Shown here: one piece after another, positions 593 through 19,671 of the stretch
Layout: every line of letters begins with the position of its first letter
How positions within the stretch are numbered: the first letter of the stretch is position 1
From: Deltaproteobacteria bacterium
GTDB lineage: Bacteria; UBA10199; 2-02-FULL-44-16
Length of the DNA: 41,061 bases
Direction of reading: 5' to 3'
Assembly (NCBI GenBank): GCA_016202335.1
Contig: JACQOX010000075.1
Span: 1 to 41,061, forward strand
The notes under the pieces: generated by a model
The model's input: the letters and a program-made list of their open reading frames with translations, nothing else
Told to the model about the DNA's origin: nothing
The model's database searches: none
Made by a program: the position numbers and the translations under genes

Positions 593-647
593 CCATCCTT
601 AGCAACAAATTTCTGTGCGAGCCGATAATGCAAATGAAGAGGAAAAT

Positions 648-2567: not shown

Positions 2568-2612
2568 TCCAAGACGTATCGCGATAAATTTGCTTCGGTT
2601 CAATCCTTTTCA

Positions 2613-2641
2613 TTGTCAGCACTTCCGGCTTGAGTTAAAAT
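2613..2641 (+). promoter_or_regulatory. Sigma70-like promoter TTGTCA-N17-TAAAAT placed to give a leaderless transcript of the beta-CASP gene.
   Basis: TTGTCA is at 2613-2618, followed by a 17-nt spacer and TAAAAT at 2636-2641. The ATG at 2648 is 7 nt past the -10 hexamer. There is no Shine-Dalgarno sequence between them. Confidence 0.45.
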
Positions 2642-2647
2642 GACATC

Positions 2648-4000: not shown

Positions 4001-4111
4001 ACGTCAAATAATTGATAAATTCCTTTGACAATCAAACCTGCCCTGTCTACATGTCCGCCCACTTTCGCCCCTTAAAAAGCGAAAAATAAAAGAGAAAAGG
4101 AAGTAACGTTT

Positions 4112-5683
4112 ATGTGTCCAGTCGTCATTCAACCCACCGAGAATCAACAGAAGACCCAGTTTGCCAAGCTTTTCGAGGAAAGCATGAAGCAGGTCTCGCT
4201 CAAAGAAGGCGAGATTGTGAAAGGCAAAATCGTCCGCATCGTTCGCGATGCCGTGATCGTGGACATCGGGTTTAAATCCGAAGGTCAGATCCCAATCGAA
4301 CAATTCACGACCCGTGGTCAGGTAAAGGCCAATATCGGCGACGAAATCGACGTCTTTATTGAAGCTGTGGAAGATGATGCGGGAATGCTCATTCTTTCCA
4401 AAGAGCGTGCCGACGGGCTTCGCGCCTGGGAGCGGTTGGAAGAAATTGAAAAACAGAACGGTGAAGTCGAAGGTACGGTGCTGACCAAGGTCAAAGGTGG
4501 TCTTTCGGTCGATATCGGCGTCCGAGCGTTTTTGCCGGGTTCTCAGATCGATCTCCGTCCTACCAAAAATCTCGATCAATACGTGGGCAAGACCTATCGC
4601 TTTAAAATCATCAAACTCAACAAACGCCGTGGCAATGTGGTTTTGTCACGCAAGGCCATTTTGGAAACTGAACGCGTCAGCCAGCGCAAAGAAACCCTGG
4701 AAACGCTCACCGAAGGCCAGATTTTCAATGGCGTCGTCAAAAACGTCACTGACTACGGTCTGTTTGTGGATCTGGGCGGTGTCGACGGATTGCTTCACAT
4801 CACCGACATGTCCTGGGGACGCATCAATCATCCGTCGGAATTATACCGTGTTGGCGATGACATCCGTGTCGTGGTCCTCAAGTACGATCGGGACGCTCAG
4901 AAGGTGTCACTCGGTCTCAAGCAGTTGATGAACGATCCCTGGCAAGATGTGGAAAACGATTTTCCGGTTGGGCTTCGTGTCCATGGCAAAGTGGTGAGCC
5001 TCACGGATTACGGTGCTTTTGTGGCGCTCAAAGATGGCATCGAAGGCTTGATCCACATCTCGGAAATGACGTGGAGCAAAAAGATCAAGCATCCTTCGAA
5101 AGTTCTTTCCGTTAGCCAGGACGTCGACGCCATTGTCTTGGACGTCGACATGGCTCAACGCCGCATTTCGCTTGGCCTCAAGCAGATCATGCCGAATCCG
5201 TGGCTCGAGCTGGAACAAAAATATCCTATCGGCAGTAAAGTCAAAGGTACGGTTCGCAACATCGCTGACTTTGGAATTTTTGTGGACGTCGGGGCTGAAA
5301 TCGATGGCCTCATCCACATTTCCGACATGTTCTGGATTCAAAATTTCGTTCATCCCTCTGAAGTGATCGCCAAGGGACAAGAAGTCGAAGCCGTAGTGCT
5401 CCACATCGATCCCGAGAATGAACGCTTCTCCCTGGGCCTCAAGCAACTTCAAGATGATCCCTGGGATCTCATGAAGGGCAAATTCAAAGAAGGCACCAAG
5501 GCCACGGGCAAAGTGATGAGTCTTACGGCCGCAGGTGCGGTGGTCCAAGTTCAAGCCGGAATCGAAGGTCTGATTCAGAAGGAAGATCTTCCCGCAGGCG
5601 TGAACGTCGGTGATGAGCTCTCGTGCCTCGTGAAAAAAGCCCAGCCTGAACAGCGCCAATTTTATCTCGAAATCCAAAAGTAA
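4112..5683 (+). CDS. rpsA: 30S ribosomal protein S1.
   Basis: Six S1 (OB-fold) repeats are recognisable: GEIVKGKIVRI, VEGTVLTKVKGGLSVDIG, GQIFNGVVKNVTDYGLFVDLGG, VHGKVVSLTDYGAFVAL, VKGTVRNIADFGIFVDVG and ATGKVMSLTAAGAVVQV. An AAGGAAG ribosome-binding site lies upstream. Confidence 0.95.
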   Translation: MCPVVIQPTENQQKTQFAKLFEESMKQVSLKEGEIVKGKIVRIVRDAVIVDIGFKSEGQIPIEQFTTRGQVKANIGDEIDVFIEAVEDDAGMLILSKERADGLRAWERLEEIEKQNGEVEGTVLTKVKGGLSVDIGVRAFLPGSQIDLRPTKNLDQYVGKTYRFKIIKLNKRRGNVVLSRKAILETERVSQRKETLETLTEGQIFNGVVKNVTDYGLFVDLGGVDGLLHITDMSWGRINHPSELYRVGDDIRVVVLKYDRDAQKVSLGLKQLMNDPWQDVENDFPVGLRVHGKVVSLTDYGAFVALKDGIEGLIHISEMTWSKKIKHPSKVLSVSQDVDAIVLDVDMAQRRISLGLKQIMPNPWLELEQKYPIGSKVKGTVRNIADFGIFVDVGAEIDGLIHISDMFWIQNFVHPSEVIAKGQEVEAVVLHIDPENERFSLGLKQLQDDPWDLMKGKFKEGTKATGKVMSLTAAGAVVQVQAGIEGLIQKEDLPAGVNVGDELSCLVKKAQPEQRQFYLEIQK

Positions 5684-5707
5684 CTTTTTAGCGTTTGAGG
5701 GGGAAAG

Positions 5708-6550
5708 GTGCGAAAAATAATCGTTATTTTCGCAGCTGTTTGCGCAGCACTTGTCCTTATTCTTATCGCAGTCCCGTCTCGCGAAAAAATTGGCGTTATC
5801 CCTATCGAAGGGGAAATCCTCACCGCTGAAGATGCCGTCGAAACCATTCGCGAGATGGCACATGATGATTCCTTAAAATCGATCATCCTTCGCTTGAATT
5901 CTCCTGGTGGAACGGTTGCTGGATCGCAGGAAATTTTAGAAGCGGTCCGTGAACTCGCCCAGAAAAAACCGGTTGTTGCCTCCATGGGCACCGTAGCGGC
6001 TTCAGGCGCCTATTACATCGCCTGCGGAGCGACCAAAATATTGGCGGCACCGGGGACTATCACCGGTTCGATCGGCGTTCGCATGGAACACGTCAACATC
6101 GGCGATCTGCTGCGTTTTGCCAAGGTCCACCATGAGACCTTAAAGAGTGGGAAATACAAAGATATCGGGGCCTTCGATCGTCCGCTGTCTGTCGCTGATC
6201 GGGCATTTCTGCAGCAACTGCTCCACGACATGCACGATCAATTCATCGATGATGTTGCCGCAAGCCGCCATATGGACAGAAAAGAGGTTCTCACCTTGGC
6301 CGACGGGCGTATCTTTAGCGGTAGACAGGCACTTGAACTAAAGCTTATCGACGAACTGGGCGGCTTTTCGCAGGCGATCAGGCGTGCTGCAGAACTCGGT
6401 CATATGACGGGCGAACCGGTTCTCATCTATCCCAAAGAAAAGGGATGGAATTGGCTGGGAAAAATATTGGGTGAATCTCTGAATCACGTGGAAAATTTTT
6501 TGAATTCGTACGGATCCATGCGGATTCCACTTGCGCGTTCTGAAATTTGA
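5708..6550 (+). CDS. sppA: Signal peptide peptidase SppA, 36K type.
   Basis: GTG start with a GAGGGGGAAAG ribosome-binding site. There is an N-terminal TM segment. The ClpP/crotonase-like SppA core is present (LRLNSPGGTVAGS, GTVAASGAYYIACGA, GSIGV). Confidence 0.9.
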   Translation: MRKIIVIFAAVCAALVLILIAVPSREKIGVIPIEGEILTAEDAVETIREMAHDDSLKSIILRLNSPGGTVAGSQEILEAVRELAQKKPVVASMGTVAASGAYYIACGATKILAAPGTITGSIGVRMEHVNIGDLLRFAKVHHETLKSGKYKDIGAFDRPLSVADRAFLQQLLHDMHDQFIDDVAASRHMDRKEVLTLADGRIFSGRQALELKLIDELGGFSQAIRRAAELGHMTGEPVLIYPKEKGWNWLGKILGESLNHVENFLNSYGSMRIPLARSEI

Positions 6551-6584
6551 TGACTTTGTAACATTCTAAAAAAGCGGAGGAAAA

Positions 6585-6866
6585 GTGAACAAAAGTGATT
6601 TGGTAGAATTTATCTCGGGGAACTTGCCAAGCCTCGCGGCACGCGATGTTGAAGTCATCGTCAATACCATTTTCGACTGCATGACGGAACAGCTGCAACA
6701 CGGGGGCCGCATTGAAATCCGTGGTTTTGGCAGCTTTGAAGTTCGCACCCGTCGCGCCCGCCTGGGACGCAATCCCAAAACCGGAGCATCGGTTGACGTC
6801 GCCGAACGCCGCGTTCCGTTCTTCAAAGTCGGCAAAGAGCTCCGAGAACGAGTAAATCATGAATAA
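6585..6866 (+). CDS. ihfB: Integration host factor beta subunit / HU-family DNA-binding protein.
   Basis: GTG start after GCGGAGGAAAA. The sequence RIEIRGFGSFEVRTRRARLGRNPKTGASV...PFFKVGKELRERVN closely parallels IHF-beta. It lies downstream of rpsA, as in proteobacteria. Confidence 0.85.
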   Translation: MNKSDLVEFISGNLPSLAARDVEVIVNTIFDCMTEQLQHGGRIEIRGFGSFEVRTRRARLGRNPKTGASVDVAERRVPFFKVGKELRERVNHE

Positions 6867-7359
6867 AGTTTGGGCACCATGGCGGATGGATTTTATCGAA
6901 GACGTCCGCGGGAAATCACCAACTGAATGCGTTTTCTGTGACATCCTCAAACATAACGTCGATCGCGAAAAATTAATTCTTCATCATGGAACACTCGCTT
7001 CCGTGGTCATGAATAAATATCCTTATACGAACGGCCATCTTCTGGTGATGCCGAAACGGCACATCGCTGAGCTTCATGATCTGACACGCGATGAGCATGC
7101 GGAAATGATGGCGCTCATGGCGGCATCCATTCCGATTTTGCGGAATGTGCTCGGCGCACAAGGCATCAATTGTGGGCTTAACTTGGGCAAGGTGGCCGGA
7201 GCCGGAATTCTTGACCATGTGCATTTTCACATCGTTCCGCGCTGGGTGGGGGATTCGAACTTTTTCCCGGTGATCGCCGAAACGCGCTCGATTCCGGAAT
7301 ACGTGCAGAAAACGTATGATCGGCTCATTGGGGAATTCCAAAAAATGGGGGAGATATGA
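6859..7359 (+). CDS. HIT (histidine triad) family nucleotide hydrolase/transferase.
   Basis: The histidine triad HVHFHIVPR is present, along with VFCDIL and NKYPYTNGHLLVMPKRH motifs. It overlaps the 3' end of ihfB by 8 nt. Confidence 0.85.
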   Translation: MNKVWAPWRMDFIEDVRGKSPTECVFCDILKHNVDREKLILHHGTLASVVMNKYPYTNGHLLVMPKRHIAELHDLTRDEHAEMMALMAASIPILRNVLGAQGINCGLNLGKVAGAGILDHVHFHIVPRWVGDSNFFPVIAETRSIPEYVQKTYDRLIGEFQKMGEI

Positions 7360-7691
7360 AGAGAGTGGTTTTCGCAGTCATCATGGCACTGATCTTTTTC
7401 GTTTTGCTTAATTTCATTTACTGTAACCTCGACGTTCAGACCCTCGGCTATCAAATGGCCTTTAAATTTACCATTCCAGGGATTTTCACTGTTCGGACAC
7501 TGCCCATTCCCGTGGGATTCGCGCTGCTCCTGGCCTTCTGCATCGGCATGGTCATGATCGCGATTTTGGAAGCGCTGCCAACGATTTACAAGTCGCTTGA
7601 GCTGCGCTCAAAGAATAAAAAAATTCGCCAGCTCGAACGTGAACTCACGCTCATGAGGCAGATGTCGACGAATGCTGGTGAAAAACTCTAA
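7356..7691 (+). CDS. LapA-domain (DUF1049-like) small inner-membrane protein.
   Basis: Two TM segments are followed by a basic coiled tail (KNKKIRQLERELTLMRQ). It has an ATGA overlap with the HIT gene. It sits downstream of ihfB as in proteobacterial lapA loci. The call rests on architecture only. Confidence 0.6.
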   Translation: MKRVVFAVIMALIFFVLLNFIYCNLDVQTLGYQMAFKFTIPGIFTVRTLPIPVGFALLLAFCIGMVMIAILEALPTIYKSLELRSKNKKIRQLERELTLMRQMSTNAGEKL

Positions 7692-7694
7692 AGG

Positions 7695-8453
7695 TTAACC
7701 GCGGAGACCTTTGCCAGACCTTCGTAATTGCTTGAGCGTCACGGAGGTATTCTCGCAGGCGTGAGAAGAGGCGAGATTTGCTTTGGTGAGGGTCTTCAGT
7801 TCTTTCGCATGGAGTTCACTCTTGGTGAGTGGCGTGGTGGTGAAGGACGACCGCTGATGCTGCGGTGATGCTTTTCTGCCGAGGTTTGCGTTGGTTGCTT
7901 TTTCAGGAATGCCTTCTCGTTCATATTTCGTGAACAGGTGATCAAAGATCAATTCAAAATTGCGTAAGGGCGAAGGGTGCTGGTCCAGCAGTTTCTTGAT
8001 GCGAAGCTTGGCTTCGGGGCCGATTTTGATGAGATGATTGGGGTTCCGAAAATCGGCCTTTAATTTTTTCAGGAACATACTCAGTTCGCTGGTCGACAGT
8101 TTCACCGACGGTTTGACGCTCACGTCAAAGAGTTCGCCCAAACCTTCTTCGGTGTACTGACCTTCATTGATCTTCATCGCGTCGAACGGGATCCGGATCT
8201 CGCCTTTGTAGCGATAGCGGTCTAAATTAAAAAAAGCGACTTTGCTGATGATGACGCTCTTGTTCGACGTGCGGTACGCAGCAAAGGCTTCATGCCAGGT
8301 GGCGAGCGAGAATTGCTTGGTATCCACAAAACCCATTTCCCATAAAGCATCGATGTCTTCGGGAGTATAGCAGACGTGCTCGCCGTCCTCGGTTTTATCG
8401 AGGTTTTCCCAAAGGTAACTCATGAAATCAAAATGGCCAAGCTCGAGGGTCAT
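7695..8453 (-). CDS. Hypothetical protein, 252 aa. Last gene of an orphan four-gene operon.
   Basis: Its start ATG overlaps the upstream stop as ATGA (8450-8453). No signal peptide or TM segment is visible. The C-terminal ~60 aa are basic and low-complexity. I recognise no family. Confidence 0.7.
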   Translation of the reverse strand: MTLELGHFDFMSYLWENLDKTEDGEHVCYTPEDIDALWEMGFVDTKQFSLATWHEAFAAYRTSNKSVIISKVAFFNLDRYRYKGEIRIPFDAMKINEGQYTEEGLGELFDVSVKPSVKLSTSELSMFLKKLKADFRNPNHLIKIGPEAKLRIKKLLDQHPSPLRNFELIFDHLFTKYEREGIPEKATNANLGRKASPQHQRSSFTTTPLTKSELHAKELKTLTKANLASSHACENTSVTLKQLRRSGKGLRG

Positions 8454-8986
8454 GTCGCCCTCGACTGAGGTTCACCATTTGGATACGCCGTTCGTTTCGA
8501 CCGCTGCAGCGCTTGATCAAGCGGGGCCTGATCAATGTGGCCAGCGATTTCCGTTTTCTTGGCTTCGGCCAGCCGCATTTCTTCGACCGCTTTATCGCCT
8601 TCACTCGCTTGGCGGGCGATGGCATTGGCAGGCCGGTGTTCGGTATTGATCACTTTAAGTTTGTCTTCCGCCTTGTCCGCAATCGCCAATGTCTCCATCG
8701 CACCGTCTTTTTGAATCGACGCGATCTTGGTCTGGTGATCGATGCGGCTTTTCATCATGTTGTTCTGAATGATCCCGGTCCAGACTTGTCCAATGGCGCT
8801 GGCCACGCCGCTGATCGCTGACCCCAGCATGCTCCAGCCCATGGCGCCCATGAGGCTGTCAAAACTTTCACTGAGTGAAGGGCCATAGGTTTCACGGACT
8901 AAGGACGTGTCACTTATTCGAGAATTGATGTCATCGACAACTGATCCGCCTTTGTTCCAAGTTAAATTTGCAAATGGATCACTCAT
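8450..8986 (-). CDS. Hypothetical protein, 178 aa: N-terminal DPF motif, Gly/Ala/Ser-rich hydrophobic segment, charged helical tail.
   Basis: ATGA overlaps occur at both ends (8983-8986 and 8450-8453). The hydrophobic segment is LMGAMGWSMLGSAISGVASAIGQVWTGII. The architecture parallels the gene upstream. Confidence 0.7.
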   Translation of the reverse strand: MSDPFANLTWNKGGSVVDDINSRISDTSLVRETYGPSLSESFDSLMGAMGWSMLGSAISGVASAIGQVWTGIIQNNMMKSRIDHQTKIASIQKDGAMETLAIADKAEDKLKVINTEHRPANAIARQASEGDKAVEEMRLAEAKKTEIAGHIDQAPLDQALQRSKRTAYPNGEPQSRAT

Positions 8987-9468
8987 AATATCTCCTTAAC
9001 CTTTTCCGGGTTTCCATAAAACGCCTGATTCGCCACGTATAGGCTCGCCCGGTTGTCTTTGCCGCGCTCGTGAATGGAAGCGAGCTGCAGCTGCATGTTG
9101 CGTTCCATGCGGTCCTTCTCTTGCTGCGTTTCAAGGTATTTGATCTGGACCTCTTTGCCGTTGTCGCTGCGCTTGCCTTCAAGTTCTATTGCTTTTTCGG
9201 CCACCGCTTTTTGATGGCCGGAGATGGTGGTTTGTGCGTCGTAGGCTTTGCCAATGGTTCCAATCTGAAGAATCCCGAGGATGGTCTGGGCAATGCTGTC
9301 AATGGCCTTACCAGCGAACGACATCCAGAGCCCTTTTCCCGCTTGGTCTATCTGTTTCCCCAGAATATTTTCACCGGCAACCGAATCTAAGCTTATCTTT
9401 GTACTAATGCTAGGCATGGTATTAAATGGATCCCAACCGGGAGATACATACTGAGGTGCGTCTGTCAT
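8983..9468 (-). CDS. Hypothetical protein, 161 aa: N-terminal DPF motif, amphipathic hydrophobic segment, charged helical tail.
   Basis: AAGGAG lies 6 nt upstream of ATG 9468 on the - strand. The N-terminal motif is GWDPFNT and the hydrophobic segment is GLWMSFAGKAIDSIAQTILGILQIGTIG. The tail is rich in K, E and Q. Confidence 0.7.
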   Translation of the reverse strand: MTDAPQYVSPGWDPFNTMPSISTKISLDSVAGENILGKQIDQAGKGLWMSFAGKAIDSIAQTILGILQIGTIGKAYDAQTTISGHQKAVAEKAIELEGKRSDNGKEVQIKYLETQQEKDRMERNMQLQLASIHERGKDNRASLYVANQAFYGNPEKVKEIL

Positions 9469-9958: not shown

Positions 9959-10897
9959 ATGACAGTGTCACTTTTGACCCAAGCCCAGCACGGAAATATC
10001 AGAGCCTTAAGCCAACTCATCACCGCCATCGAATCCCACGACAAAGACTCTCTGAATTTGCATTCGGCGGTGTATGACGCCCGCAAAGGCGCCCCTATTT
10101 TGGGGATCACGGGCCCTCCAGGAGCAGGAAAATCCAGTCTCACCGACCGGTTGATCCACCGTTACCGCAAACAGGGGGAACGCGTGGGTATCGTGGCCAT
10201 CGACCCATCGAGCCATTTCACCGGCGGCGCTATACTGGGGGATCGCATCCGCATGATGTCGCATGCCAGCGACCCGGGCGTGTTCATCCGCTCGCTGGGC
10301 ACGCGTGGATCGCACGGCGGACTTTCCCGGGCGACGCAGGACATCGTCGCCTGCTTGGACGCCGCTGGCTTTGACCGGATTATCGTGGAAACCGTGGGCG
10401 TGGGGCAGACGGAGCTCGACATCGCCCGAATTGCCGATACGACACTTATCGTGCTCGTCCCTGAAGCTGGAGACGTCGTGCAAACCATGAAGGCCGGCCT
10501 GTTTGAAGTCGCCGACCTGTTTGTCATCAATAAATCAGATCGCGGTGGCGGGGAAAACCTCTCCACGGCGCTTCAGGGGCAGATGGCCCTTGATGAGAAA
10601 GCCTGGCAGGTACCGGTTCTGCTTGCTTCGGCGCTTAAGGATGAGGGAATAGAAGGAATCCTCGAGCAAATCGAAGCCCACCGCGCCTTTGCCAGAGACA
10701 ATCATGATTATCACACCATGCGCGAGATGCTTCGTCGTGAATTGTTTTTTGATCTCTTGAGCGATGAAATTGCTTCTCGAATGCGGCAAAAAATTGCTCA
10801 CGATAAACACTTGTCGCAACTCCTTGAACACTATGTCCATGAGGGTCGAAATCCCTACGGACTTCTGGCAAAACTTTTGGAGAGCATTGTCCCATGA
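9959..10897 (+). CDS. meaB: Methylmalonyl-CoA mutase-associated G3E GTPase MeaB/ArgK.
   Basis: The P-loop is GITGPPGAGKSSL. Other matching motifs are VETVGVGQ and NKSD, plus the N-terminal RALSQLITAIES helix. The stop overlaps the mutS start as ATGA (10894-10897). Confidence 0.9.
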   Translation: MTVSLLTQAQHGNIRALSQLITAIESHDKDSLNLHSAVYDARKGAPILGITGPPGAGKSSLTDRLIHRYRKQGERVGIVAIDPSSHFTGGAILGDRIRMMSHASDPGVFIRSLGTRGSHGGLSRATQDIVACLDAAGFDRIIVETVGVGQTELDIARIADTTLIVLVPEAGDVVQTMKAGLFEVADLFVINKSDRGGGENLSTALQGQMALDEKAWQVPVLLASALKDEGIEGILEQIEAHRAFARDNHDYHTMREMLRRELFFDLLSDEIASRMRQKIAHDKHLSQLLEHYVHEGRNPYGLLAKLLESIVP

Positions 10898-13800
10898 GCA
10901 CCGCTTTGGCCTCTGACGTCACGCCGATGATGAAGCAGTATTTGAGCATCAAGGAAGACCATCGCGATGCCATTCTGCTGTTTCGACTGGGCGATTTTTA
11001 TGAGATGTTTTTTGACGACGCGGTTGAAGCCTCCAAGATTCTCGATATTGCGCTGACGACCAGGAACCGAAGTGAAGCTCATCAGGTGCCGCTCTGTGGG
11101 GTGCCGTATCATTCCATCCAGCCGTACATCACGAAACTCCTTGAAGCCGGAAAGCGCATCGCCATCTGCGATCAGGTGGAAGATCCCGCTACGGCCAAAG
11201 GTGTGGTGAAGCGCGAAGTCGTGCGCATCATTACTCCCGGCGTGGTCCTTGACGGCGAACACCTCGACGCCAAATCGCATAATTTTCTGGCGGCGGTTAT
11301 TCCCCAGGAAAATTCGTTTGGCTTGGCTTTTGTCGACGTGTCCACAGGTTGGTTTGAAGCTGGAGAAGTGCAGAGTGCGGAAAATCTGCTGGAAGAGATC
11401 GCCCGGCGAAGTCCAAAGGAATTGGTGTTCAATCGGCCTTTGAAGGCTTCACTCAAAGAGACGATTGCTCGATATTTTCCCAAGATGGTGTTTACGGAAA
11501 CTGGTAGGGGCGACCGGCCGGTCGCCCCTACACAATTCGTTGCTCCTACACAATACACTGAAGCCGCCGCGCTTGCCTGGGACTACCTCCGATCCACCCA
11601 GAAGAGCGACCTCCCGCACATCACGTCGATCCAGCCTCTTTCTGGCAGCACCTGTATGCGCCTGGACGAAGCGACGAAGCGCAATCTCGAGCTCGTGGAA
11701 TCCATGCTGAGTGGTGAACGAAGCTATACGCTGCTGGAACATCTGGATCGCACGAAGACATCGATGGGGGCGCGGGCCTTGCGCACCTGGATTCTGCATC
11801 CGCTCCTGGACGAGGCGGTCATCAATGCCCGACTGAATGCCGTTCACAGCCTGATCGAATCTTCGGTAGCCGACGCCATGCGTGAGGCCTTGAAAGAAGT
11901 GTATGACCTTGAACGGATCATGAGCCGCATCGCCATGAAAAATGCGAGCCCACGCGATGTGGTGCATCTTTCCCTGTCGCTCAGCCATATTCCTTCCATT
12001 AAACAAGGGATCGCCAGCTCTCATGGTTTATTGGAAACGCTCGGTCATGAACTCGACGAATTGAGCGATCTTCGTTCGATCATCGCCTCAACGCTTGTTG
12101 AAGAGCCGCCGTTCTCGCCGCGCGATGGAGGCATGATCCGAAATGGCATCTCCACTGACCTCGACGAACTCCGAACCATCTCCCATCACGGCAAAGATTT
12201 CATCGCTCGCTTGGAAGCTCAGGAAAAGGAATCGACCGGGATTGGATCGCTGAAAGTTCGCTATAACAAGGTGTTTGGGTATTACATCGAAGTGACACAT
12301 GCGCATCGCGATAAAATTCCGCTGCATTACATCCGCAAACAGACGCTGGTGAACGCTGAGCGCTACATCACGCCTGAGCTTAAAGAATACGAAGAAAAAG
12401 TCTTGGGCAGCGAAGAGAAATCAAAGGCTTTGGAGTATCATCTCTTTACCGCGCTTCGCGATCAGGTGGCAGAGGCCTTACCGCGCGTGATGCGCACGGC
12501 CAAGGCCGTGGCAGAGCTCGATGCGCTGCTCTCACTTGCGGAAATTGCTTCGGAGTTTGGCTACGTGCGGCCCGACGTGATGCAACAAGATCAACTCGAC
12601 ATCATCGAAGGGAGGCATCCCATCGTGGAGCGGCTCATTCCTGATGAACGATTTGTCCCGAACGACGTCTGCCTGAACGACGCTTCTGGCAGGATGATGG
12701 TGATCACCGGTCCCAACATGTCCGGAAAATCAACGGTCATGCGCCAGACCGCGCTCATCGTGCTCATGGCGCAGATCGGTTCGTTTGTCCCCGCAAAGCG
12801 CGCTGTCATCGGCATCGTGGACCGCATTTTCACCCGCGTTGGTGCTTCCGACGCGTTGGCGCTCGGGAAATCGACGTTCATGGTGGAGATGTCGGAGACG
12901 GCCTTGATTCTCAACCAAGCGACCGAGCGAAGCCTCGTCATTGTCGATGAAATTGGTCGCGGAACCTCGACCTTTGATGGCCTGGCCATCGCCTGGGCAG
13001 TGGCGGAAGACCTTCACGATCGGGTGAAGGCCCGAACGCTTTTTGCAACCCACTATCATGAGCTTACCGACTTGGCGCTCACCAAACCCATGATGAAAAA
13101 TGTTCACATTGCCGTGAAGGAAGTCGACGGGAAGATTGTTTTTCTGCGGAAACTTATTCCCGGGGGAACTTCCCGAAGTTATGGCATCCATGTCGCGAAG
13201 CTCGCCGGCATTCCTGCGGCGGTGATTGATCGCGCGGAGGAAGTCTTGCAAAATCTGGAGCAGGGCGAATTCGACGAAAAAGGTGAGGCGAAGATCGCAC
13301 ATCGCCATAAAAAACTTTCCTCGCAGTTGGGGTTGTTTCTCGCAAAATCAATTTTTCTTTGCATCGTTGGATTCTCGACGCTCGCATCGGCCGAGACAAT
13401 GACTGAAAAGGAACTCTTTGAGCGGGCCAGTCAATTGACCTTCACGGCGCAGAAGACCCAGTCGCAACCCGATGCGCTGGAAGCCATCGATGTGCTCAAT
13501 CAATTTCACATCCGTTATCCCAAATCCAAGCTCGCCGATGATGCACTGTATAGCATCGCCGGGCTTCGCGATGCACCGCTCAAACAAAAGGACAAGGCGG
13601 TTGCCGCGCTCACCGCACTCATCAAACGCTATCCACAGGAAGATAAGGTGACCTCGGCGAAAGCGCTGCTCGCCAAACTCCAAGGCAATGCGACCAAGCC
13701 AAAACCAATTGAAAAACATCCTGCGATCGTCGCAAAAAAATCGGTTGCAGTGGTGGAACCAACGAAAAAAACAATCCCACAGAAGCCATTTGTCCCGAGC

Positions 13801-14934
13801 GGTTCTTACAACCTTGAAGATATCAAGATCTCAGGCAACAACGAGTCAGCGGAACTCATGCTCGACTTCGATCGATCGGTGGCTTTGACGACGACGTATA
13901 TTCCCATGGGGAAACGCACGGGTTCTCCAGCACATATGATTCTAGATATCCCGCATGCGTTTAAAGCTGAGCATTTGCCCAAGAAGATGAACTTTGATTC
14001 ACCGCACGTTGCGTCTGTAAAAATAAAACGGTCTTGGTTTACGAACCGCCTCATCTGCGATCTGGAACTTAAATCAGGCGTTAAATATTCGGTCGAGCAT
14101 CGTCAGAACGATGTCGTGATTTTACTCTCCCAGAAAAAGGGAAATGCTGTTACTACCGCCTCCGAACACAAAGAAGCTCCGACACCTCTTCCCAAACCGT
14201 CGTTTTTTGAAACCAAGCCAGGAACTGCGTTGCATGTAAATGACCGGAAGCTTTTGATCGTCATCGATCCAGGACATGGTGGGGAGGACACAGGTGCCGT
14301 TGGAAAACAGGGGGTCAAAGAAAAGGATGTTGCTCTCACGATCGCCAAGCGGCTCGCCAGGGAACTCAAAACGAATCTTGGGGCGAATGTCATTTTGACG
14401 CGCACGAGCGATGCCACGCTTTCGCTGGAGGAGCGTAACCGCATTGCCAATGAACATGAGGCCGACCTGTTCTTGTCCATTCACGCCAATGCATCGACCG
14501 ACCGAAAGGCCCATGGGCTGCAGACGTATTTTCTGAACGTCGCTACGGACAAGGCTTCCGAAAAGCTGGCGTCGCGAGAAAATGCTTCGGCCAAAAAACC
14601 CCTGCCGGAAGTCGAACACATCCTCTCCAACATGATGCAGACCTATCAGGCAGACGAATCGCAGCTCCTTGCCGCTGATGTGCAAAAATCCATGGTCTCA
14701 GGGGTTTCAAAACACTACGACGGTGTCCGTGATTTAAAAGTTCAATCGGCATTGTTCTATGTGCTGGTGGGGGCGAAGTGTCCGAGCATTCTGATTGAAA
14801 GCTCGTTTATCTCGAACCCCCAGGAAGAGCGGCGGCTCAAGAACGGCTATTATCAAGAGCACCTGGCCAAAGCCATTACTCGCGGGATCAAAAAATACGT
14901 GACGACGCGTGACGCCCGTGCGGCGTCTTTGTGA
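10894..14934 (+). CDS. mutS: DNA mismatch repair protein MutS (residues 1-815), continuing in frame without a stop into a signal-peptide/TPR-like/AMIN/amidase_3 module.
   Basis: The MutS N-terminus is TPMMKQYLSIKEDHRDAILLFRLGDFYEMF. Walker A is GPNMSGKST (about 12707-12733) and DEIGRGTST follows. A clamp-binding-type QLGLF motif is at 13324-13338. It is followed by LAKSIFLCIVGFSTLASA, then an amidase_3 core (VIDPGHGGEDTGA...SIHANA). The ORF track shows no stop between them. Confidence 0.85.
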   Translation: MSTALASDVTPMMKQYLSIKEDHRDAILLFRLGDFYEMFFDDAVEASKILDIALTTRNRSEAHQVPLCGVPYHSIQPYITKLLEAGKRIAICDQVEDPATAKGVVKREVVRIITPGVVLDGEHLDAKSHNFLAAVIPQENSFGLAFVDVSTGWFEAGEVQSAENLLEEIARRSPKELVFNRPLKASLKETIARYFPKMVFTETGRGDRPVAPTQFVAPTQYTEAAALAWDYLRSTQKSDLPHITSIQPLSGSTCMRLDEATKRNLELVESMLSGERSYTLLEHLDRTKTSMGARALRTWILHPLLDEAVINARLNAVHSLIESSVADAMREALKEVYDLERIMSRIAMKNASPRDVVHLSLSLSHIPSIKQGIASSHGLLETLGHELDELSDLRSIIASTLVEEPPFSPRDGGMIRNGISTDLDELRTISHHGKDFIARLEAQEKESTGIGSLKVRYNKVFGYYIEVTHAHRDKIPLHYIRKQTLVNAERYITPELKEYEEKVLGSEEKSKALEYHLFTALRDQVAEALPRVMRTAKAVAELDALLSLAEIASEFGYVRPDVMQQDQLDIIEGRHPIVERLIPDERFVPNDVCLNDASGRMMVITGPNMSGKSTVMRQTALIVLMAQIGSFVPAKRAVIGIVDRIFTRVGASDALALGKSTFMVEMSETALILNQATERSLVIVDEIGRGTSTFDGLAIAWAVAEDLHDRVKARTLFATHYHELTDLALTKPMMKNVHIAVKEVDGKIVFLRKLIPGGTSRSYGIHVAKLAGIPAAVIDRAEEVLQNLEQGEFDEKGEAKIAHRHKKLSSQLGLFLAKSIFLCIVGFSTLASAETMTEKELFERASQLTFTAQKTQSQPDALEAIDVLNQFHIRYPKSKLADDALYSIAGLRDAPLKQKDKAVAALTALIKRYPQEDKVTSAKALLAKLQGNATKPKPIEKHPAIVAKKSVAVVEPTKKTIPQKPFVPSGSYNLEDIKISGNNESAELMLDFDRSVALTTTYIPMGKRTGSPAHMILDIPHAFKAEHLPKKMNFDSPHVASVKIKRSWFTNRLICDLELKSGVKYSVEHRQNDVVILLSQKKGNAVTTASEHKEAPTPLPKPSFFETKPGTALHVNDRKLLIVIDPGHGGEDTGAVGKQGVKEKDVALTIAKRLARELKTNLGANVILTRTSDATLSLEERNRIANEHEADLFLSIHANASTDRKAHGLQTYFLNVATDKASEKLASRENASAKKPLPEVEHILSNMMQTYQADESQLLAADVQKSMVSGVSKHYDGVRDLKVQSALFYVLVGAKCPSILIESSFISNPQEERRLKNGYYQEHLAKAITRGIKKYVTTRDARAASL
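11504..11531. repeat. 28-bp perfect GC-rich palindrome (REP-like) inside the mutS reading frame.
   Basis: The sequence is GTAGGGGCGACCGG|CCGGTCGCCCCTAC. It encodes GRGDRPVAPT in frame. An imperfect 18-nt tandem duplication overlaps it and continues downstream (11524-11541 and 11542-11559, 14/18 identical), encoding APTQFV and APTQYT. Confidence 0.9.
13333..14934 (+). CDS. Possible independently translated N-acetylmuramoyl-L-alanine amidase (AmiC-like, with TPR/YbgF-like and AMIN domains) starting at an internal TTG.
   Basis: A TTG start at 13333 (or 13327) would give MFLAKSIFLCIVGFSTLASA|E, a textbook Sec signal peptide. No clear Shine-Dalgarno sequence lies upstream, so this model is tentative. 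The AMIN-like region is about 13800-14130 and amidase_3 about 14250-14930. Confidence 0.4.
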   Translation: MFLAKSIFLCIVGFSTLASAETMTEKELFERASQLTFTAQKTQSQPDALEAIDVLNQFHIRYPKSKLADDALYSIAGLRDAPLKQKDKAVAALTALIKRYPQEDKVTSAKALLAKLQGNATKPKPIEKHPAIVAKKSVAVVEPTKKTIPQKPFVPSGSYNLEDIKISGNNESAELMLDFDRSVALTTTYIPMGKRTGSPAHMILDIPHAFKAEHLPKKMNFDSPHVASVKIKRSWFTNRLICDLELKSGVKYSVEHRQNDVVILLSQKKGNAVTTASEHKEAPTPLPKPSFFETKPGTALHVNDRKLLIVIDPGHGGEDTGAVGKQGVKEKDVALTIAKRLARELKTNLGANVILTRTSDATLSLEERNRIANEHEADLFLSIHANASTDRKAHGLQTYFLNVATDKASEKLASRENASAKKPLPEVEHILSNMMQTYQADESQLLAADVQKSMVSGVSKHYDGVRDLKVQSALFYVLVGAKCPSILIESSFISNPQEERRLKNGYYQEHLAKAITRGIKKYVTTRDARAASL

Positions 14935-15193: not shown

Positions 15194-15506
15194 AGAAAAA
15201 ATCTGCAAGGACCAGGCGACAACGGAAGGCTACTGTCGCCTGCATTTTTTAAAGCACTGGAAAACCATTCGCGACGACAAGAAAAAGAAGGCCGCCAAAA
15301 AGTTGAATGCCTATGTCGATTACATGCTGCGTTCCAACCCCGACAATGTGGTTGAAGCCATCCGCAGCAATATCCAAAAAGGCGAATTTAAAGATCAACC
15401 CACGCCCGATGCTGCCGACGAACCGACCTTCATCTTCGAAGACGCTGGCGCCCAAGACGAAATTCGGACGCTTTTAAAGGAATTAAAGATCGGGAAAGAG
15501 TATTAA
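15171..15506 (+). CDS. Hypothetical small protein with an N-terminal Cys/His cluster (C-x4-C-x10-C-x2-H).
   Basis: The N-terminus is MAKIRICKEKICKDQATTEGYCRLHF, followed by a Lys-rich stretch and an acidic tail. It overlaps the previous ORF by 23 nt. I recognise no family. Confidence 0.6.
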   Translation: MAKIRICKEKICKDQATTEGYCRLHFLKHWKTIRDDKKKKAAKKLNAYVDYMLRSNPDNVVEAIRSNIQKGEFKDQPTPDAADEPTFIFEDAGAQDEIRTLLKELKIGKEY

Positions 15507-17527
15507 ACCTTCCTTCGCATCGGCAATTTCATCAAACAATAACCGATAATCCCAAAGGTTGCGAATGCCAGCCAGCCGCCGGCGGTTTTGAGGAGTGCCG
15601 GTTCTTCGACGCCGAAGAAGTAGGCCGACAGCGAAGGGATGCCCACCAAGGTGAGCGCGGCCAGGGCCACACCCGTCAAGGCTTCGCCGGCGATGAGGCC
15701 CGAAGCGATGAGAGTTCCGCGGTTTTCGATAATCAGCCGTTCCTCGGGAGCAGCCTGCTTTCGATTCATCCAGCGATCCACCAACCACTTCATGACGCCA
15801 CCCACAAAGATGGCGAACGTTGTTTCAAAGGGAAGGTACATGCCGACAGCGATGAGCATGGGCGAGGGAGCTTCGATGAGGAGGAGCCCCAGTGAAAAGA
15901 ACATGCCGAAGACGACGAGTGCCCACGGCATGTCGCCGCCGACGATGCCTGTGGCGAGCTGCGCCATGAGACCAGCCTGAGGTGCCGGCAGTTTGAGATC
16001 GCCGATCCCGAGTCCTCCAGCGGCGATGTTGCCTTCGTGCAGAATGATCATCGGGAAGACCAGGAAAAACGAAACGACGATGACGCCGATGATTTCCGCG
16101 AGTTCCATCTTCCACGGTGTTCCACCGATGAGCTGGCCGATCTTTAAATCCTGAATCATGTCGCCGGACAGACAAGCGGCGCAGCAGACGATCGCGGCAA
16201 CACCCAAAACTGCAGCCACGCCAGGAAGGCCGGTCAGCCCAATGGCGATCATGACGAGGGCGGCGATGATGAGTGCGGACAGCGTGAGGCCAGAGACTGG
16301 TTGATTGGAATTGCCGACGATGCCGACGAGCCATCCGCCTACGGCTGAGAAAAGAAACCCGGTGATCACCATGATGATGGCGGTGACGATGGCTCCGCCA
16401 ATGCTTTGGGTAAAGTGGTGATAAACAAAGATCATGGGAATCAGCAAAAGTGCGGAGGCAAGAAAGATTCGACGGGGGTTTAAATCTCGTTCAAGTCGAC
16501 TTGGAGCGACGTTCGAAGCAGCGGAAGTCTTCTTCGAAAAAACACCGGAGAAGGATTTCTTCAGTGAAGATCTTAACCCCCACAGAGTTTTAAAAGATCC
16601 CACAAGCATGGCACCGACAGCGATGGGGCGGATGTGGTTATACCATGACGAATAGGCCAGCGTGGACCAGTCGGCAGGTTGGCCGTTGACAGCCAAACGC
16701 GTAGAGAGATCAGGATCCAAAAAAATGGCCAAGGGGATGAAGACCAGCCAGGCCAAGACACCGCCGGCCAGATTGATCGACGAATATTTGGGGCCGATGA
16801 TGTAGCCGACGCTGATGAGCGCGGGAGAGACGAGAGGAGTTTGGAAGAGCATCATGCCTTGGTGAGCGACATTTCCCAGGGCCTCTTTGCTGGTATTAAA
16901 GTGGTGGATCACGGATTTGGGAAATCCGATGATGAATTCCCTGGTTTCCTGAATGATGGGGAAGCCGCTGGTGTTTTTGAAAAGTTCGATGATGACGGCA
17001 ATGCCCATAGAACCGAAGACCAGAGACGCGCCTGTTTCTCCCTTCTGGCCGGCCTTCACAATTTCAAAGCAGGCATGACCTTCAGGAAAGGGAAGATCAG
17101 CGTCCACGACAAGTGTGCGGCGGAGTAAAATCACGAAGAACGTCCCCAGCAGTCCGCCAACGAGCAAGATGATCGTTGTTTCCCAATAGTGAAAATGGGT
17201 CCACAGTTTTTGCCCGCCGAGGGATGCCATTAAGAAAGCAGGAATCGTAAAAATGGCACCTGCCACCAAGGCTTCGCCAACGGAAGCTGTGGTGCGGGCG
17301 ATATTTTGTTCGAGGATCGATCCCCTGAGAAAGGGAATGCGAAAGGCAGCGATGGCGATGACCGCGGCGGGGAAGGATGCGGCAATGGTCATTCCTGCCT
17401 TGAGCCCCAAATAGGCATTGGCTGCCCCGAGGACCACGGCCATGATGAGTCCCAGCAAAATAGCTTTGACTGTGAGCTCGCGCTCTTGGCTGTGTTCATC
17501 AACGTAGGGTTTTACGTGGTTGGACAT
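15503..17527 (-). CDS. OPT-family oligopeptide transporter.
   Basis: It is 674 aa and polytopic. The N-terminus (RELTVKAILLGLIMAVVLGAANAYLGLKAGMTIAASFPAAV) and overall layout are typical of bacterial OPT transporters. It is a paralog of the adjacent gene. Confidence 0.9.
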   Translation of the reverse strand: MSNHVKPYVDEHSQERELTVKAILLGLIMAVVLGAANAYLGLKAGMTIAASFPAAVIAIAAFRIPFLRGSILEQNIARTTASVGEALVAGAIFTIPAFLMASLGGQKLWTHFHYWETTIILLVGGLLGTFFVILLRRTLVVDADLPFPEGHACFEIVKAGQKGETGASLVFGSMGIAVIIELFKNTSGFPIIQETREFIIGFPKSVIHHFNTSKEALGNVAHQGMMLFQTPLVSPALISVGYIIGPKYSSINLAGGVLAWLVFIPLAIFLDPDLSTRLAVNGQPADWSTLAYSSWYNHIRPIAVGAMLVGSFKTLWGLRSSLKKSFSGVFSKKTSAASNVAPSRLERDLNPRRIFLASALLLIPMIFVYHHFTQSIGGAIVTAIIMVITGFLFSAVGGWLVGIVGNSNQPVSGLTLSALIIAALVMIAIGLTGLPGVAAVLGVAAIVCCAACLSGDMIQDLKIGQLIGGTPWKMELAEIIGVIVVSFFLVFPMIILHEGNIAAGGLGIGDLKLPAPQAGLMAQLATGIVGGDMPWALVVFGMFFSLGLLLIEAPSPMLIAVGMYLPFETTFAIFVGGVMKWLVDRWMNRKQAAPEERLIIENRGTLIASGLIAGEALTGVALAALTLVGIPSLSAYFFGVEEPALLKTAGGWLAFATFGIIGYCLMKLPMRRKV

Positions 17528-17553
17528 GTTCGCCTCTTCGAGAAATGTGCATG

Positions 17554-17584
17554 AAAAAAGGGCCAGCGATGTACTGGCCCTTTT
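17554..17584 (-). terminator. Rho-independent terminator between the two OPT genes.
   Basis: On the - strand the stem is GGGCCAG, the loop is tacatcg, and the closing arm is CTGGCCC followed by TTTTTT. The stem spans 17560-17580 and the T-tract is the complement of A17554-17559. The + strand also has TTTT after the stem. Confidence 0.7.
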
Positions 17585-17609
17585 GGTCGATCATTCACAT
17601 GGCCAGTGT

Positions 17610-19547
17610 TTAGTCCTCAACCTTCTTCACCGCAGCCTTAAAGAGGAATCCGCACAGCACAGCGAAGACGATGACGGGGAGGAGTCCATCCAGTAATGGG
17701 CCGTAGGTTTCCCCCAGGTGATAACGTTCACCGACATTGAGGAGTGTGGCGTAAGCACCTTCATTGATCCCCGCAAGCACCGCGATGGCTATGCCGGCCA
17801 AGGAACCGCCAGCCACGAGCCCGGTGGAGTAAAGCATACCGGAGCTGATTTCGCCTTCTTCCTGTTTCTTTTTCGTCACTGCGCTGACCAGGGCATTGAC
17901 CATACCGCCGATGAAGATCGGCATGGTGGTGGCCAGAGGGAGGTAAGCCCCGACCGCGACAGGCAGCGAACGCACGCCGCAGAGTTCAATGACCACGGAA
18001 ATGAGGGCTCCCACAAACACCAGTCCCCAAGGCAATTCTTGAGCCAGCAGACCTTTGATTAGGGTTGCCATGAGGGTTGCCTGAGGGGCCGCCAATTTTT
18101 CAGAACCGATGGGGCCGTAGGGCGAGTTGTGCAACATGAGCAGGGTCAGACCAACCACGATGACGGAAGTGACGACGCCGATGAGAAGACCAAGCTGCTG
18201 TTTGTACGGGGTTGCGCCGACGATGTAGCCTGTTTTGAGATCTTGACTGGTGGCGCCGCCGTTTGCAGAGGCGATGCAGACGATGGCACCGACGAAGAGT
18301 GCCAAGGCTTGATAGGATTCGCCCGTCCAGCCGAGTGACACGAAAATCAAACAGGTGGCCATGATCGTGGCGATGGTCATGCCTGAAATTGGATTGGAGG
18401 ATGAACCGATGATGCCCACGATGCGGCTCGAAACCGTGACAAAGAAGAAACCAAAGATGACGATCAGGGCAGACATGAGGATGCGAGAAGTAAACTCACC
18501 GGGGAGTTGCGGCAAGAATGCAAAGCCGACGGCCAAGGCGAGGGAGCCGATCAAAACGGTTTTCATCGGCATGTCGCGTTCCGTACGGCTTTGTTTGCCG
18601 TCGGCCGCTGAACCTTTGAAGCTCTTGAAGCTACCGGCGAACGAAGAGATGATCGTCGGGATGGTGCGAATCAAGGTGAAGAGACCACCGGCGGCAACAG
18701 CACCTGCGCCGATGTAACGGACGTAACCGCGGTAAATTTCCGTGACCGACATTTCAGAAATCAATTTTTCCTTCCAACCCGGAAGGAGTACAGTTTGCAA
18801 TTGATCGCCAAAGAGGGTGATCAAGGGGATGAGCACCATCCAGGAGAGTACGGAACCGGCAACGATGCGGGAAGCGCCCAGAGGGCCGATGATGTACCCT
18901 ACGCCGAGGTATTCAGGAGTGATTTCAGAATTGATGGTGGCATTGGGAAACTGGCTTGTTCTTGCCGTGGTGAAAGACGGTGTGTCTTTCCACAGGCCAA
19001 ACACGCTCATCATGAGTTTGTAGGCGATGGAGATCCAGAGTCCGGAGAAGACCATTTTGGCGAGATTTCCGCCCTTTTCGCCGGCGACGAGAACTTCAGC
19101 GCAGGCCGTGCCTTCCGGGTAAGGAAGGGTTCCGTGTTCCTGGACGATCAAGGTTCGGCGAAGCGGGATCATGAACAACACGCCGAGGATACCGCCGGCG
19201 AGCGCCAAGGTCAGGATGTGAAAATATTGAAAGTATTGGTCGGCATTGGTGAGAAACGTGAGCGCTGGGACCGTGAAAACGACACCAGCGGCGATGGACT
19301 CACCGGCGGAGCCGATCGTTTGAACAATGTTGTTTTCAAGGATAGTTGAACGGCCAATTTTTTTGAAGACGGCGATGGCCAGCACTGCGATGGGAATCGA
19401 GGCCGATACCGTGAGGCCGGCGCGGAGTGCCAGATACACGGTTGAGGCGCCAAAGATGACGCCAAAGATGATGCCAAGGATGATTGCTTTAAACGAAAAC
19501 TCTGCCAACGACTCTTCTGCTGCTACGAACGGTTTAAAGTTTGCCAT
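17610..19547 (-). CDS. OPT-family oligopeptide transporter (second, upstream paralog).
   Basis: ATG 19547 is preceded by AAGGAGG with 6-nt spacing. The ORF-track start at 19613 has no ribosome-binding site. The sequence is collinear with the neighbouring OPT (FSFKAIILGIIFGVIFGASTVYLALRAGLTVSASIP). Confidence 0.9.
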   Translation of the reverse strand: MANFKPFVAAEESLAEFSFKAIILGIIFGVIFGASTVYLALRAGLTVSASIPIAVLAIAVFKKIGRSTILENNIVQTIGSAGESIAAGVVFTVPALTFLTNADQYFQYFHILTLALAGGILGVLFMIPLRRTLIVQEHGTLPYPEGTACAEVLVAGEKGGNLAKMVFSGLWISIAYKLMMSVFGLWKDTPSFTTARTSQFPNATINSEITPEYLGVGYIIGPLGASRIVAGSVLSWMVLIPLITLFGDQLQTVLLPGWKEKLISEMSVTEIYRGYVRYIGAGAVAAGGLFTLIRTIPTIISSFAGSFKSFKGSAADGKQSRTERDMPMKTVLIGSLALAVGFAFLPQLPGEFTSRILMSALIVIFGFFFVTVSSRIVGIIGSSSNPISGMTIATIMATCLIFVSLGWTGESYQALALFVGAIVCIASANGGATSQDLKTGYIVGATPYKQQLGLLIGVVTSVIVVGLTLLMLHNSPYGPIGSEKLAAPQATLMATLIKGLLAQELPWGLVFVGALISVVIELCGVRSLPVAVGAYLPLATTMPIFIGGMVNALVSAVTKKKQEEGEISSGMLYSTGLVAGGSLAGIAIAVLAGINEGAYATLLNVGERYHLGETYGPLLDGLLPVIVFAVLCGFLFKAAVKKVED

Positions 19548-19671
19548 GCCGCGCCTCCTTAAAATTTTTCTGTAAATGTCGGAACCAAGATAAAATTGCA
19601 ACAGATTTAACATGAAAGAGTTCTTCTAAGTTGCCTTGACGAAAGAGCATCTCCTCTGGTAGCCGCCCGGC

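Follow-up and report, generated by a model that had tools for sequence, protein, structure and literature searches.

An in-frame mutS-amidase fusion in a deltaproteobacterial contig, probably derived from two operon neighbors

We analyzed a 41,061-nt stretch of DNA assigned to an uncultivated deltaproteobacterium (GenBank assembly GCA_016202335.1, contig JACQOX010000075.1; "the window" hereafter means this whole stretch), in which the mismatch repair gene mutS and a gene for a periplasmic cell-wall amidase share a single open reading frame (ORF). An earlier note, made from the sequence alone, had pointed to this frame, and the ORF list and domain searches bear it out: the ORF runs over 1346 codons plus a stop without any internal stop codon, and Pfam recognizes MutS_I to MutS_V at residues 10–789, TPR_6 at residues 883–915 and Amidase_3 at residues 1122–1334. 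The parts follow each other in the order MutS domains I–V, clamp-type motif, signal-peptide-like segment, TPR-like domain, AMIN-like domain and Amidase_3 (Table 1). There is a 4-nt overlap between the ATG of the fused ORF and the stop of the preceding gene, which encodes a MeaB-like GTPase (9959–10897). On that side lie three further small genes on the minus strand; two small ORFs and genes for OPT transporters lie on the other side, and the remaining ORFs of the window are long and intact. The fused ORF is a new domain architecture built from known kinds.

Table 1. Parts of the fused ORF in the window, and arrangement of mutS and the amidase gene in relatives where the two are linked (AF2, AlphaFold2; pLDDT, predicted local distance difference test score)
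Feature or locus	Nucleotides	Strand	Residues	Basis or arrangement	Gap (bp)
Fused mutS-amidase ORF	10894..14934	+		ORF list, Pfam and NCBIfam matches	
MutS core, domains I–V	10921..13260	+	10–789	Pfam, NF003810, TIGR01070, motifs	
QLGLF, last MutS-derived residues	13324..13338	+	811–815	Alignment with relatives, E. coli position	
Two in-frame TTG codons, candidate amidase starts (MFLAKSIF...)	13327–13329, 13333–13335	+		Sequence	
Amidase signal peptide without initiator Met (LAKSIFLCIVGFSTLASA)	13339..13392	+	816–833	Alignment, hydropathy	
Signal segment, low-confidence helix			816–831	AF2 model	
TPR-like (YbgF/BamD-like) helical domain	13396..13683	+	835–930	Pfam, AF2, Foldseek, alignment	
Confident helical repeat domain, pLDDT above 90			835–930	AF2 model	
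Disordered linker (predicted)			933–969	AF2 model	
All-beta AMIN-like domain	13807..14133	+	972–1080	AF2 model, Foldseek	
Disordered linker (predicted)			1083–1115	AF2 model	
Amidase_3 catalytic domain	14254..14922	+	1121–1343	Pfam (E 7.9e-52), AF2 model, Foldseek, motifs	
L002 (GCA_002796345.1, labelled Deltaproteobacteria CG11)	3408–7722			MeaB-mutS-amidase-glnD-small-small-OPT	22
L014	2309–6764			mutS and amidase adjacent	79
L011	2331–6248			mutS and amidase adjacent	21
L012 (labelled Bdellovibrionota)	2361–6362			mutS and amidase adjacent	0
L016 (4.8 Mb contig)	4001–8457			mutS stop overlaps amidase start	-4
L001, L013				One unrelated gene between mutS and amidase, not adjacent	

The N-terminal part of the fused protein scores far above the NCBIfam cut-offs for MutS (1044.9 bits against 480 for NF003810; 1018.4 bits against 641.7 for TIGR01070). 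It carries the mismatch-binding motif GDFYE (residue 33), the Walker A motif GPNMSGKS (606), DEIGRGT (685) and THYHEL (719). Of the MutS1 features that we tested, the core domains and these motifs are present, the clamp-binding pentapeptide is a putative one, and the helix-loop-helix responsible for dimerization and tetramerization is absent. Indeed, the TIGR01070 match covers model positions 2–804 of 840; the match reaches positions 838–840 in all six of the other MutS proteins scanned (those of five linked relatives and the MutS part of a second fusion, P0241, described below). In 7/7 orthologs, 36–41 residues bearing the signature TP[LI][ED]AL..[LI]..L follow the clamp-type motif. In the fusion, this motif, QLGLF, directly abuts the hydrophobic segment. 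It fits the pentapeptide type that binds the beta clamp, of which it is a putative binder, and aligns with QYQLF, QLSFF, QLDLF, IQLF, QLTLF and QLSLF of the relatives.

The position of QLGLF had been given correctly in the earlier note, to the nucleotide, as had those of the two TTG codons, and its likeness in residue number to the E. coli motif is also right: the latter is 812-QMSLL-816 and lies within a poorly conserved linker (PMC1636413). The conclusion that MutS ends where expected was mistaken, since the clamp motif alone is in place and the 36–41 residues beyond it are gone. In E. coli, the corresponding residues 823–853 form a conserved helix-loop-helix that stabilizes dimers and forms tetramers (PMC1636413). 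We searched for a remnant of this domain in all six frames of the whole window, using tblastn with five such domains together with a motif scan, and found none. On these comparisons, the MutS of the window is truncated by about 36–41 C-terminal residues. The C-terminal domain is missing from every frame, and therefore a point mutation, a stop loss or a frameshift cannot explain the fusion. The E. coli truncation MutS800 impairs repair, raising the mutation frequency 5–10-fold even if a multicopy plasmid supplies it (PMC1636413). By analogy, mismatch repair is probably weakened rather than abolished in the window lineage.

One candidate for a relocated C-terminal domain was tried and rejected. 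The segment QPDALEAIDVLNQF (13447–13545), located past the signal peptide, paired weakly with TPLEALNILHEL (MAFFT alignment; tblastn E 1.1). Its resemblance to the MutS motif TPLEAL..L..L was judged to be due to chance: the segment aligns better with the first TPR helices of amidase homologs, and it is modelled at pLDDT above 90 as part of the TPR-like domain.

Immediately after QLGLF, the frame runs on as LAKSIFLCIVGFSTLASA/ETM, the slash marking the predicted signal peptidase I site (A831-S832-A833/E834, between nucleotides 13392 and 13393). The whole region has the layout of a signal peptide, with a charged n-region (HRHKK...LAK), an h-region (SIFLCIVGFSTL) and small residues at positions -3 and -1 (ASA/E). 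It contains the most hydrophobic 19-residue stretch of the entire protein (Kyte-Doolittle mean 1.99), with a net charge of +3 in the 15 residues upstream and of -1 downstream. The N-terminal signal peptides of free-standing amidase homologs (M[KR][KR], h-region, AxA) align exactly with this segment, K818 matching the Lys/Arg of their n-regions, and the Met alone is missing. These results agree with the earlier description of a complete Sec-type signal peptide, which we predict to be cleaved at the site given above. The segment lies 815 residues into the ORF and is not N-terminal unless translation starts at TTG 13327 or 13333. We read no twin-arginine motif in the signal region, and therefore export would use Sec and not Tat. 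Within the fusion, the retained segment would serve either to signal export from inside the chain or to anchor the protein in the membrane.

We modelled residues 816–1346 with AlphaFold2 (48 homologs; mean pLDDT 83). The best Foldseek match in the PDB is the E. coli amidase AmiC (4BIN; 382 columns across the beta and catalytic domains; E 4.5e-24), followed by structures of AmiA and AmiB, the matches to the three enzymes ranging from E 1e-14 to 4.5e-24. The beta domain matches the B2/AMIN domain of PilQ (4AQZ; E 3.7e-4) and the helical domain matches the TPR domain of YbgF (2XEV; E 9e-3). Profile searches of the helical domain return Pfam TPR_6, and weakly YfiO and TIGR02795 (ybgF). The earlier assignment of this half to YbgF/TPR-like, AMIN-like and amidase_3 domains thus holds at the level of the fold. 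Among sequence profiles it holds for TPR_6 and Amidase_3; Pfam AMIN gave no match in the window protein even at E<=10, and does match some of the free-standing homologs.

The match of the catalytic domain to Amidase_3 (PF01520) is strong, with 176 bits against a cut-off of 27. Its motifs DPGHGG (residue 1125), SIHANA (1195) and ESSFISN (1302) are present, as is VIDPGHGGEDTGA, and it carries an inserted helix of the kind found in cell-division amidases. The scores remain far below the NCBIfam equivalog cut-offs (144 against 700 for AmiC, 143 against 400 for AmiA and 115 against 532 for AmiB). The amidase half is an Amidase_3 enzyme of the cell-division type with an additional YbgF-like TPR domain, and not an equivalog of AmiA, AmiB or AmiC. 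As a separate observation, the TPR-like domain contains two repeats of the 'YP..ADDALY' type against three in the aligned homologs, about 45 residues fewer. The shortfall looks like either a further in-frame deletion within this gene or the collapse of a repeat.

We then compared the locus to those of relatives. Free-standing homologs of the amidase are 550–630 residues long and about 40% identical to the window protein, and none of the best 120 matches is fused. All seven relatives in which mutS and the amidase gene are linked possess them as separate genes, adjacent in five cases (gaps of -4 to 79 bp) and with one gene between them in the other two. The idea that the two genes were once separate is therefore right as history; simple loss of the stop codon, the form in which it had been put, is not, and an in-frame deletion takes its place. 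Two other loci (L009 and L017) show no such linkage. At least three lineages have conserved the mutS-amidase linkage, which is not universal. The linked pair spans uncultivated deltaproteobacteria-like and Bdellovibrionota-like lineages and is an association of interest in its own right. The precedent of amiB-mutL in E. coli, invoked previously, is also correct (gap of 9 bp): there too, an amidase gene and a mismatch repair gene are neighbors on the same strand, but they remain unfused, mutL takes the place of mutS, and the amidase gene comes first. Finally, the same neighbors are found on both sides of the fusion as in the relatives, and the junction is therefore not a misjoin of unrelated regions.

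To identify other fusions, we conducted an exhaustive HMMER search of residues 501–1346 against 1.84 billion cluster representatives, in which fused proteins score on both halves. The best 150 matches contain one other MutS-amidase fusion, which is also the top match: P0241 (1261 residues). It is encoded at 1073–4858 of locus L010 (GCA_044356295.1, JBIKWN010000038.1), and an identical protein is found in GCA_041443045.1. The protein was called on a 96 kb contig in the latter and on a 22 kb contig, in two NCBI assemblies. Its MutS part is full length (TIGR01070 positions 4–840 of 840) and 40% identical to that of the window. P0241 also possesses the catalytic motifs of both halves (GDFYE, Walker A, DE.GRGT, TH[FY]HEL, DPGHGG and S[IL]H.N.); the last amidase motif, ESSFISN, was not found in it. 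The rarity of the fusion rests mainly on this exhaustive search, since word-indexed protein searches may overlook long fused proteins. A search with residues 700–1261 of P0241, which missed P0241 itself, yielded no fused relative with an identity below 90%, and a protein search with the sequence spanning the window junction returned only MutS fragments.

The junction of P0241 reads ...TPLDALNSLSQLKKY/LLIVLSFLIIFSISSPEIFA/ESKK, with the join at ...SQLKKY/LLIVLSF...; here again the signal peptide has lost its Met and retained its cleavage site (IFA/ES). The join falls within a run of lysine codons (CTC AAA AAA TAT), and the MutS tails and amidase n-regions of relatives are lysine-rich. A microhomology-mediated deletion is a plausible origin for P0241, and it need have removed only the stop, the spacer and the ATG. 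The neighborhood of L010 (response regulator, mutS-amidase, PolyA_pol, SPOR and PP2C) is that of the unfused loci L011 and L012. We reconstructed neighbor-joining trees of both halves from identity distances, without bootstrap. The window groups among L001, L013, L014 and L002, and P0241 groups with L011 and L012, for both halves. MutS identity is 35–42% between clades and 47–62% within clades. The clades, the neighborhoods and the junctions of the two fusions differ, and they therefore represent two independent events. Both have kept a whole signal peptide, with n-region lysines, h-region and a canonical -3/-1 site. For MutS, the root-to-tip distances of the window (0.298) and P0241 (0.291) compare with 0.298–0.319 for the unfused genes (0.309–0.319 for the unfused clade-A relatives of the window). 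Neither fused gene lies on a lengthened branch, which fits a recent event and continued function alike.

Compared with its relatives, the locus carries a derived fusion, in our view probably an accidental union of operon neighbors that yields a self-resolving polyprotein, exported through its internal Sec signal and then cleaved. We hold the evolutionary part of this account much more confidently than the processing step. The ancestor would have carried mutS (about 856–882 codons) followed, within -4 to 79 bp on the same strand, by a second gene encoding an AmiC-like amidase destined for export, with a signal peptide and TPR-like, AMIN-like and Amidase_3 domains. In the window lineage, one in-frame deletion of roughly 140–220 bp would have removed the last 36–41 codons of mutS (the helix-loop-helix), the stop, the spacer and the ATG of the amidase gene. 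We infer both the single step and the size of this deletion, the latter by summing 36–41 codons, the stop, the ATG and a spacer of the length seen in the closest relatives (22–79 bp). It would have joined MutS, directly after QLGLF, to an amidase signal peptide complete but for its Met.

According to the same account, a single chain would be translated and its MutS part would fold in the cytoplasm. The internal signal would enter the Sec pathway with its N-terminal side in and its C-terminal side out, an orientation suggested by the charges of +3 before and -1 after the hydrophobic segment, and the amidase half would be translocated. Signal peptidase I would then cleave after A833 and free a normal, mature periplasmic amidase. 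The MutS left behind would lack the helix-loop-helix and carry a hydrophobic tail of roughly 20 residues, which may hold it at the membrane pending degradation or clipping. Amidase function would survive and MutS would probably be weakened, so that the joining of a cytoplasmic protein to a periplasmic one would be tolerated. That both independent fusions retained the n-, h- and c-regions would be explained in the same way, because export and cleavage would make such fusions viable. The earlier note had already considered a genuine fusion with cytoplasmic MutS and periplasmic amidase, possibly separated by signal peptidase. Its topology is coherent and it gains weight from the second independent fusion with a whole signal peptide; its function is a prediction.

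Several observations weigh against this account. That an amidase located behind a folded domain of 815 residues would be exported and cleaved off is an extrapolation from what is generally known of Sec and signal peptidase I. With about 12–15 residues, the h-region is short, and the efficiency of targeting is therefore uncertain. Loss of the C-terminal domain impairs repair in E. coli, as MutS800 illustrates (PMC1636413), and unaccelerated evolution fits a very recent and possibly deleterious deletion equally well. Exact look-ups of the fusion, MeaB-like and OPT proteins found no near-identical genome that would corroborate the junction, and scans of genome and metagenome contig collections with peptide patterns returned distant amidases only. 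The two assemblies with P0241 may represent one population sampled twice. More generally, all the evidence comes from assemblies of unculturable lineages, and what the fusion does is predicted from them.

The junction could alternatively reflect an assembly or consensus error at 13339, or a minority or recent deleterious deletion allele in a population whose dominant genome has separate genes. We consider this unlikely. It would agree with the presence of two genes in every relative that is close enough, and with the absence of signs that the genes have adapted to fusion over the long term; the window genome is moreover absent from the collections searched, so the junction is uncorroborated. 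However, synteny is preserved to either side of the junction, we found no repeats near it that could cause an assembly collapse, and the rest of the window contains long, intact ORFs. An error would also have had to delete in frame and spare the whole signal peptide, and the analogous fusion P0241 is reproduced in two other assemblies.

Another reading, which also strikes us as improbable, accepts the fusion as real but has the amidase made mainly as an ordinary precursor from an internal start at TTG 13333 or 13327. The full-length chain would then amount to a by-product, minor or unstable, on which MutS activity would depend if it persisted at all. The two TTG codons lie in frame exactly where the homologs start. 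In addition, the mRNA is weakly structured there: the folding energies of 60-nt segments at the two codons are -5.7 and -6.7 kcal/mol, relative to means of -13.0 for the ORF and -9.3 for 26 putative gene starts, and positions 13297–13362 are among the least structured 3–5% of the ORF (96th–97th percentile), as in real start regions. This low structure may nevertheless have come down from what was once the 5' end of the amidase gene. As stated previously, neither codon is preceded by a suitably spaced Shine-Dalgarno sequence; about 40% of the window's putative genes and several of the amidase orthologs lack one as well. A scan of the window for promoters and terminators yielded nothing above background, with no promoter-like site upstream of the TTG codons. 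Furthermore, the site would be covered by ribosomes translating mutS, and P0241 has no equivalent start codon: the codon at this position is CTC and the nearest in-frame ATG is 15 codons upstream.

The fusion might instead be a recurrent architecture that is selectively retained in uncultivated Bdellovibrionota-like lineages, either as a cleavable linker that fixes a 1:1 output of the two products or as a means of tethering MutS to the membrane; we find this quite doubtful. In a stronger version, which we regard as very unlikely, the protein was selected as a bitopic one: the uncleaved segment would anchor MutS at the inner membrane with the amidase in the periplasm, coupling mismatch repair or the status of replication to septal cell-wall cleavage. 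The topology is coherent with the charge difference across the segment, the gene linkage is conserved in several lineages and paralleled by amiB-mutL, and the fusion arose twice with both halves intact. However, both fusions are singletons within unfused clades and their junctions differ. They have canonical signal peptidase sites and short h-regions that are typical of cleaved signals and not of stable anchors. The search with the C-terminal half of P0241 yielded no fused relative, within the limits given above, and a literature search on MutS-amidase fusions, or on a functional link between the two, brought up nothing relevant.

Proteins of the ToxR/CadC type offer an analogy of topology only, with a cytoplasmic N-terminal DNA-binding domain, one membrane segment and a periplasmic C-terminal domain. 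They have no sequence relationship to the fusion. Signal peptidase sites are lacking in their segments, which are stable anchors within an ancient, conserved architecture.

The remaining explanations can be dismissed briefly. A frameshift or a point loss of the stop is incompatible with the absence of the C-terminal domain in six frames and with a signal peptide that starts straight after QLGLF, an alternative genetic code or read-through would require a stop codon to read through and none exists, and an ancient fusion followed by fission is unparsimonious, since the two fused genes have different junctions and sit in separate clades amid seven unfused relatives.

Relative to known systems, the N-terminal half shares with E. 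coli MutS1 the five core domains, the Phe-x-Glu motif, the ATPase motifs and the position of a clamp-type pentapeptide. It differs by the lack of the helix-loop-helix, in which it resembles MutS800 with the clamp motif kept, and by its continuation into a hydrophobic segment and 513 residues of a periplasmic enzyme. The amidase half shares the Amidase_3 fold and the zinc and catalytic motifs with AmiC, AmiB and AmiA, and its free-standing homologs carry an export signal; the extra YbgF-like TPR domain, the lack of a twin-arginine motif and the internal position of its signal peptide set it apart. P0241 and the window protein have in common the ancestral gene pair and the order MutS, Met-less signal peptide, TPR-like domain and Amidase_3. 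P0241 belongs to another clade, as sister to the unfused L011, and to another neighborhood, and it combines a full-length MutS with an amidase half that has no AMIN-like domain.

If the junction is real, the fusion constitutes a natural test of the capacity of an internal Sec signal to direct the export and release of a passenger that follows a large folded domain. The occurrence of the same join twice, from a tightly packed and conserved gene pair, illustrates how operon neighbors may become fusions. Annotation pipelines will call such an ORF "MutS" and lose the amidase, or will deduce a functional link from the fusion. A MutS without its dimer/tetramer domain also means that the lineage may have weakened mismatch repair and possibly be a mutator. 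Should the reading of a selected architecture be true, it would make sense of the recurrent association between mismatch repair genes and amidase genes (mutS-amidase and amiB-mutL), and a membrane-tethered MutS would link replication fidelity to cell separation.

Several other features of the window can be mentioned. One is an ORF of 1552 codons (29710–34368, plus strand) for a large uncharacterized protein, whose sole Pfam match is a marginal one to FG-GAP_3 (E 8.7e-4). An ORF of 650 codons (615–2567, plus strand) has no Pfam match, and the same is true of three consecutive ORFs on the minus strand at 7695–9468 (252, 178 and 161 residues). A run of small minus-strand genes without Pfam match is found at the same place, upstream of MeaB or mutS, in L002, L004, L014 and L001; the likeness noted is one of position. 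On the other side of the fusion, glnD lies between the amidase gene and the small ORFs in L001, L002 and L014, and is absent from this place in the window and in L013. Finally, two tandem genes for OPT-family oligopeptide transporters (15503–19613, minus strand; 674 and 667 residues) are located downstream of the fusion, and one or two OPT genes occupy the corresponding position in the relatives as well.

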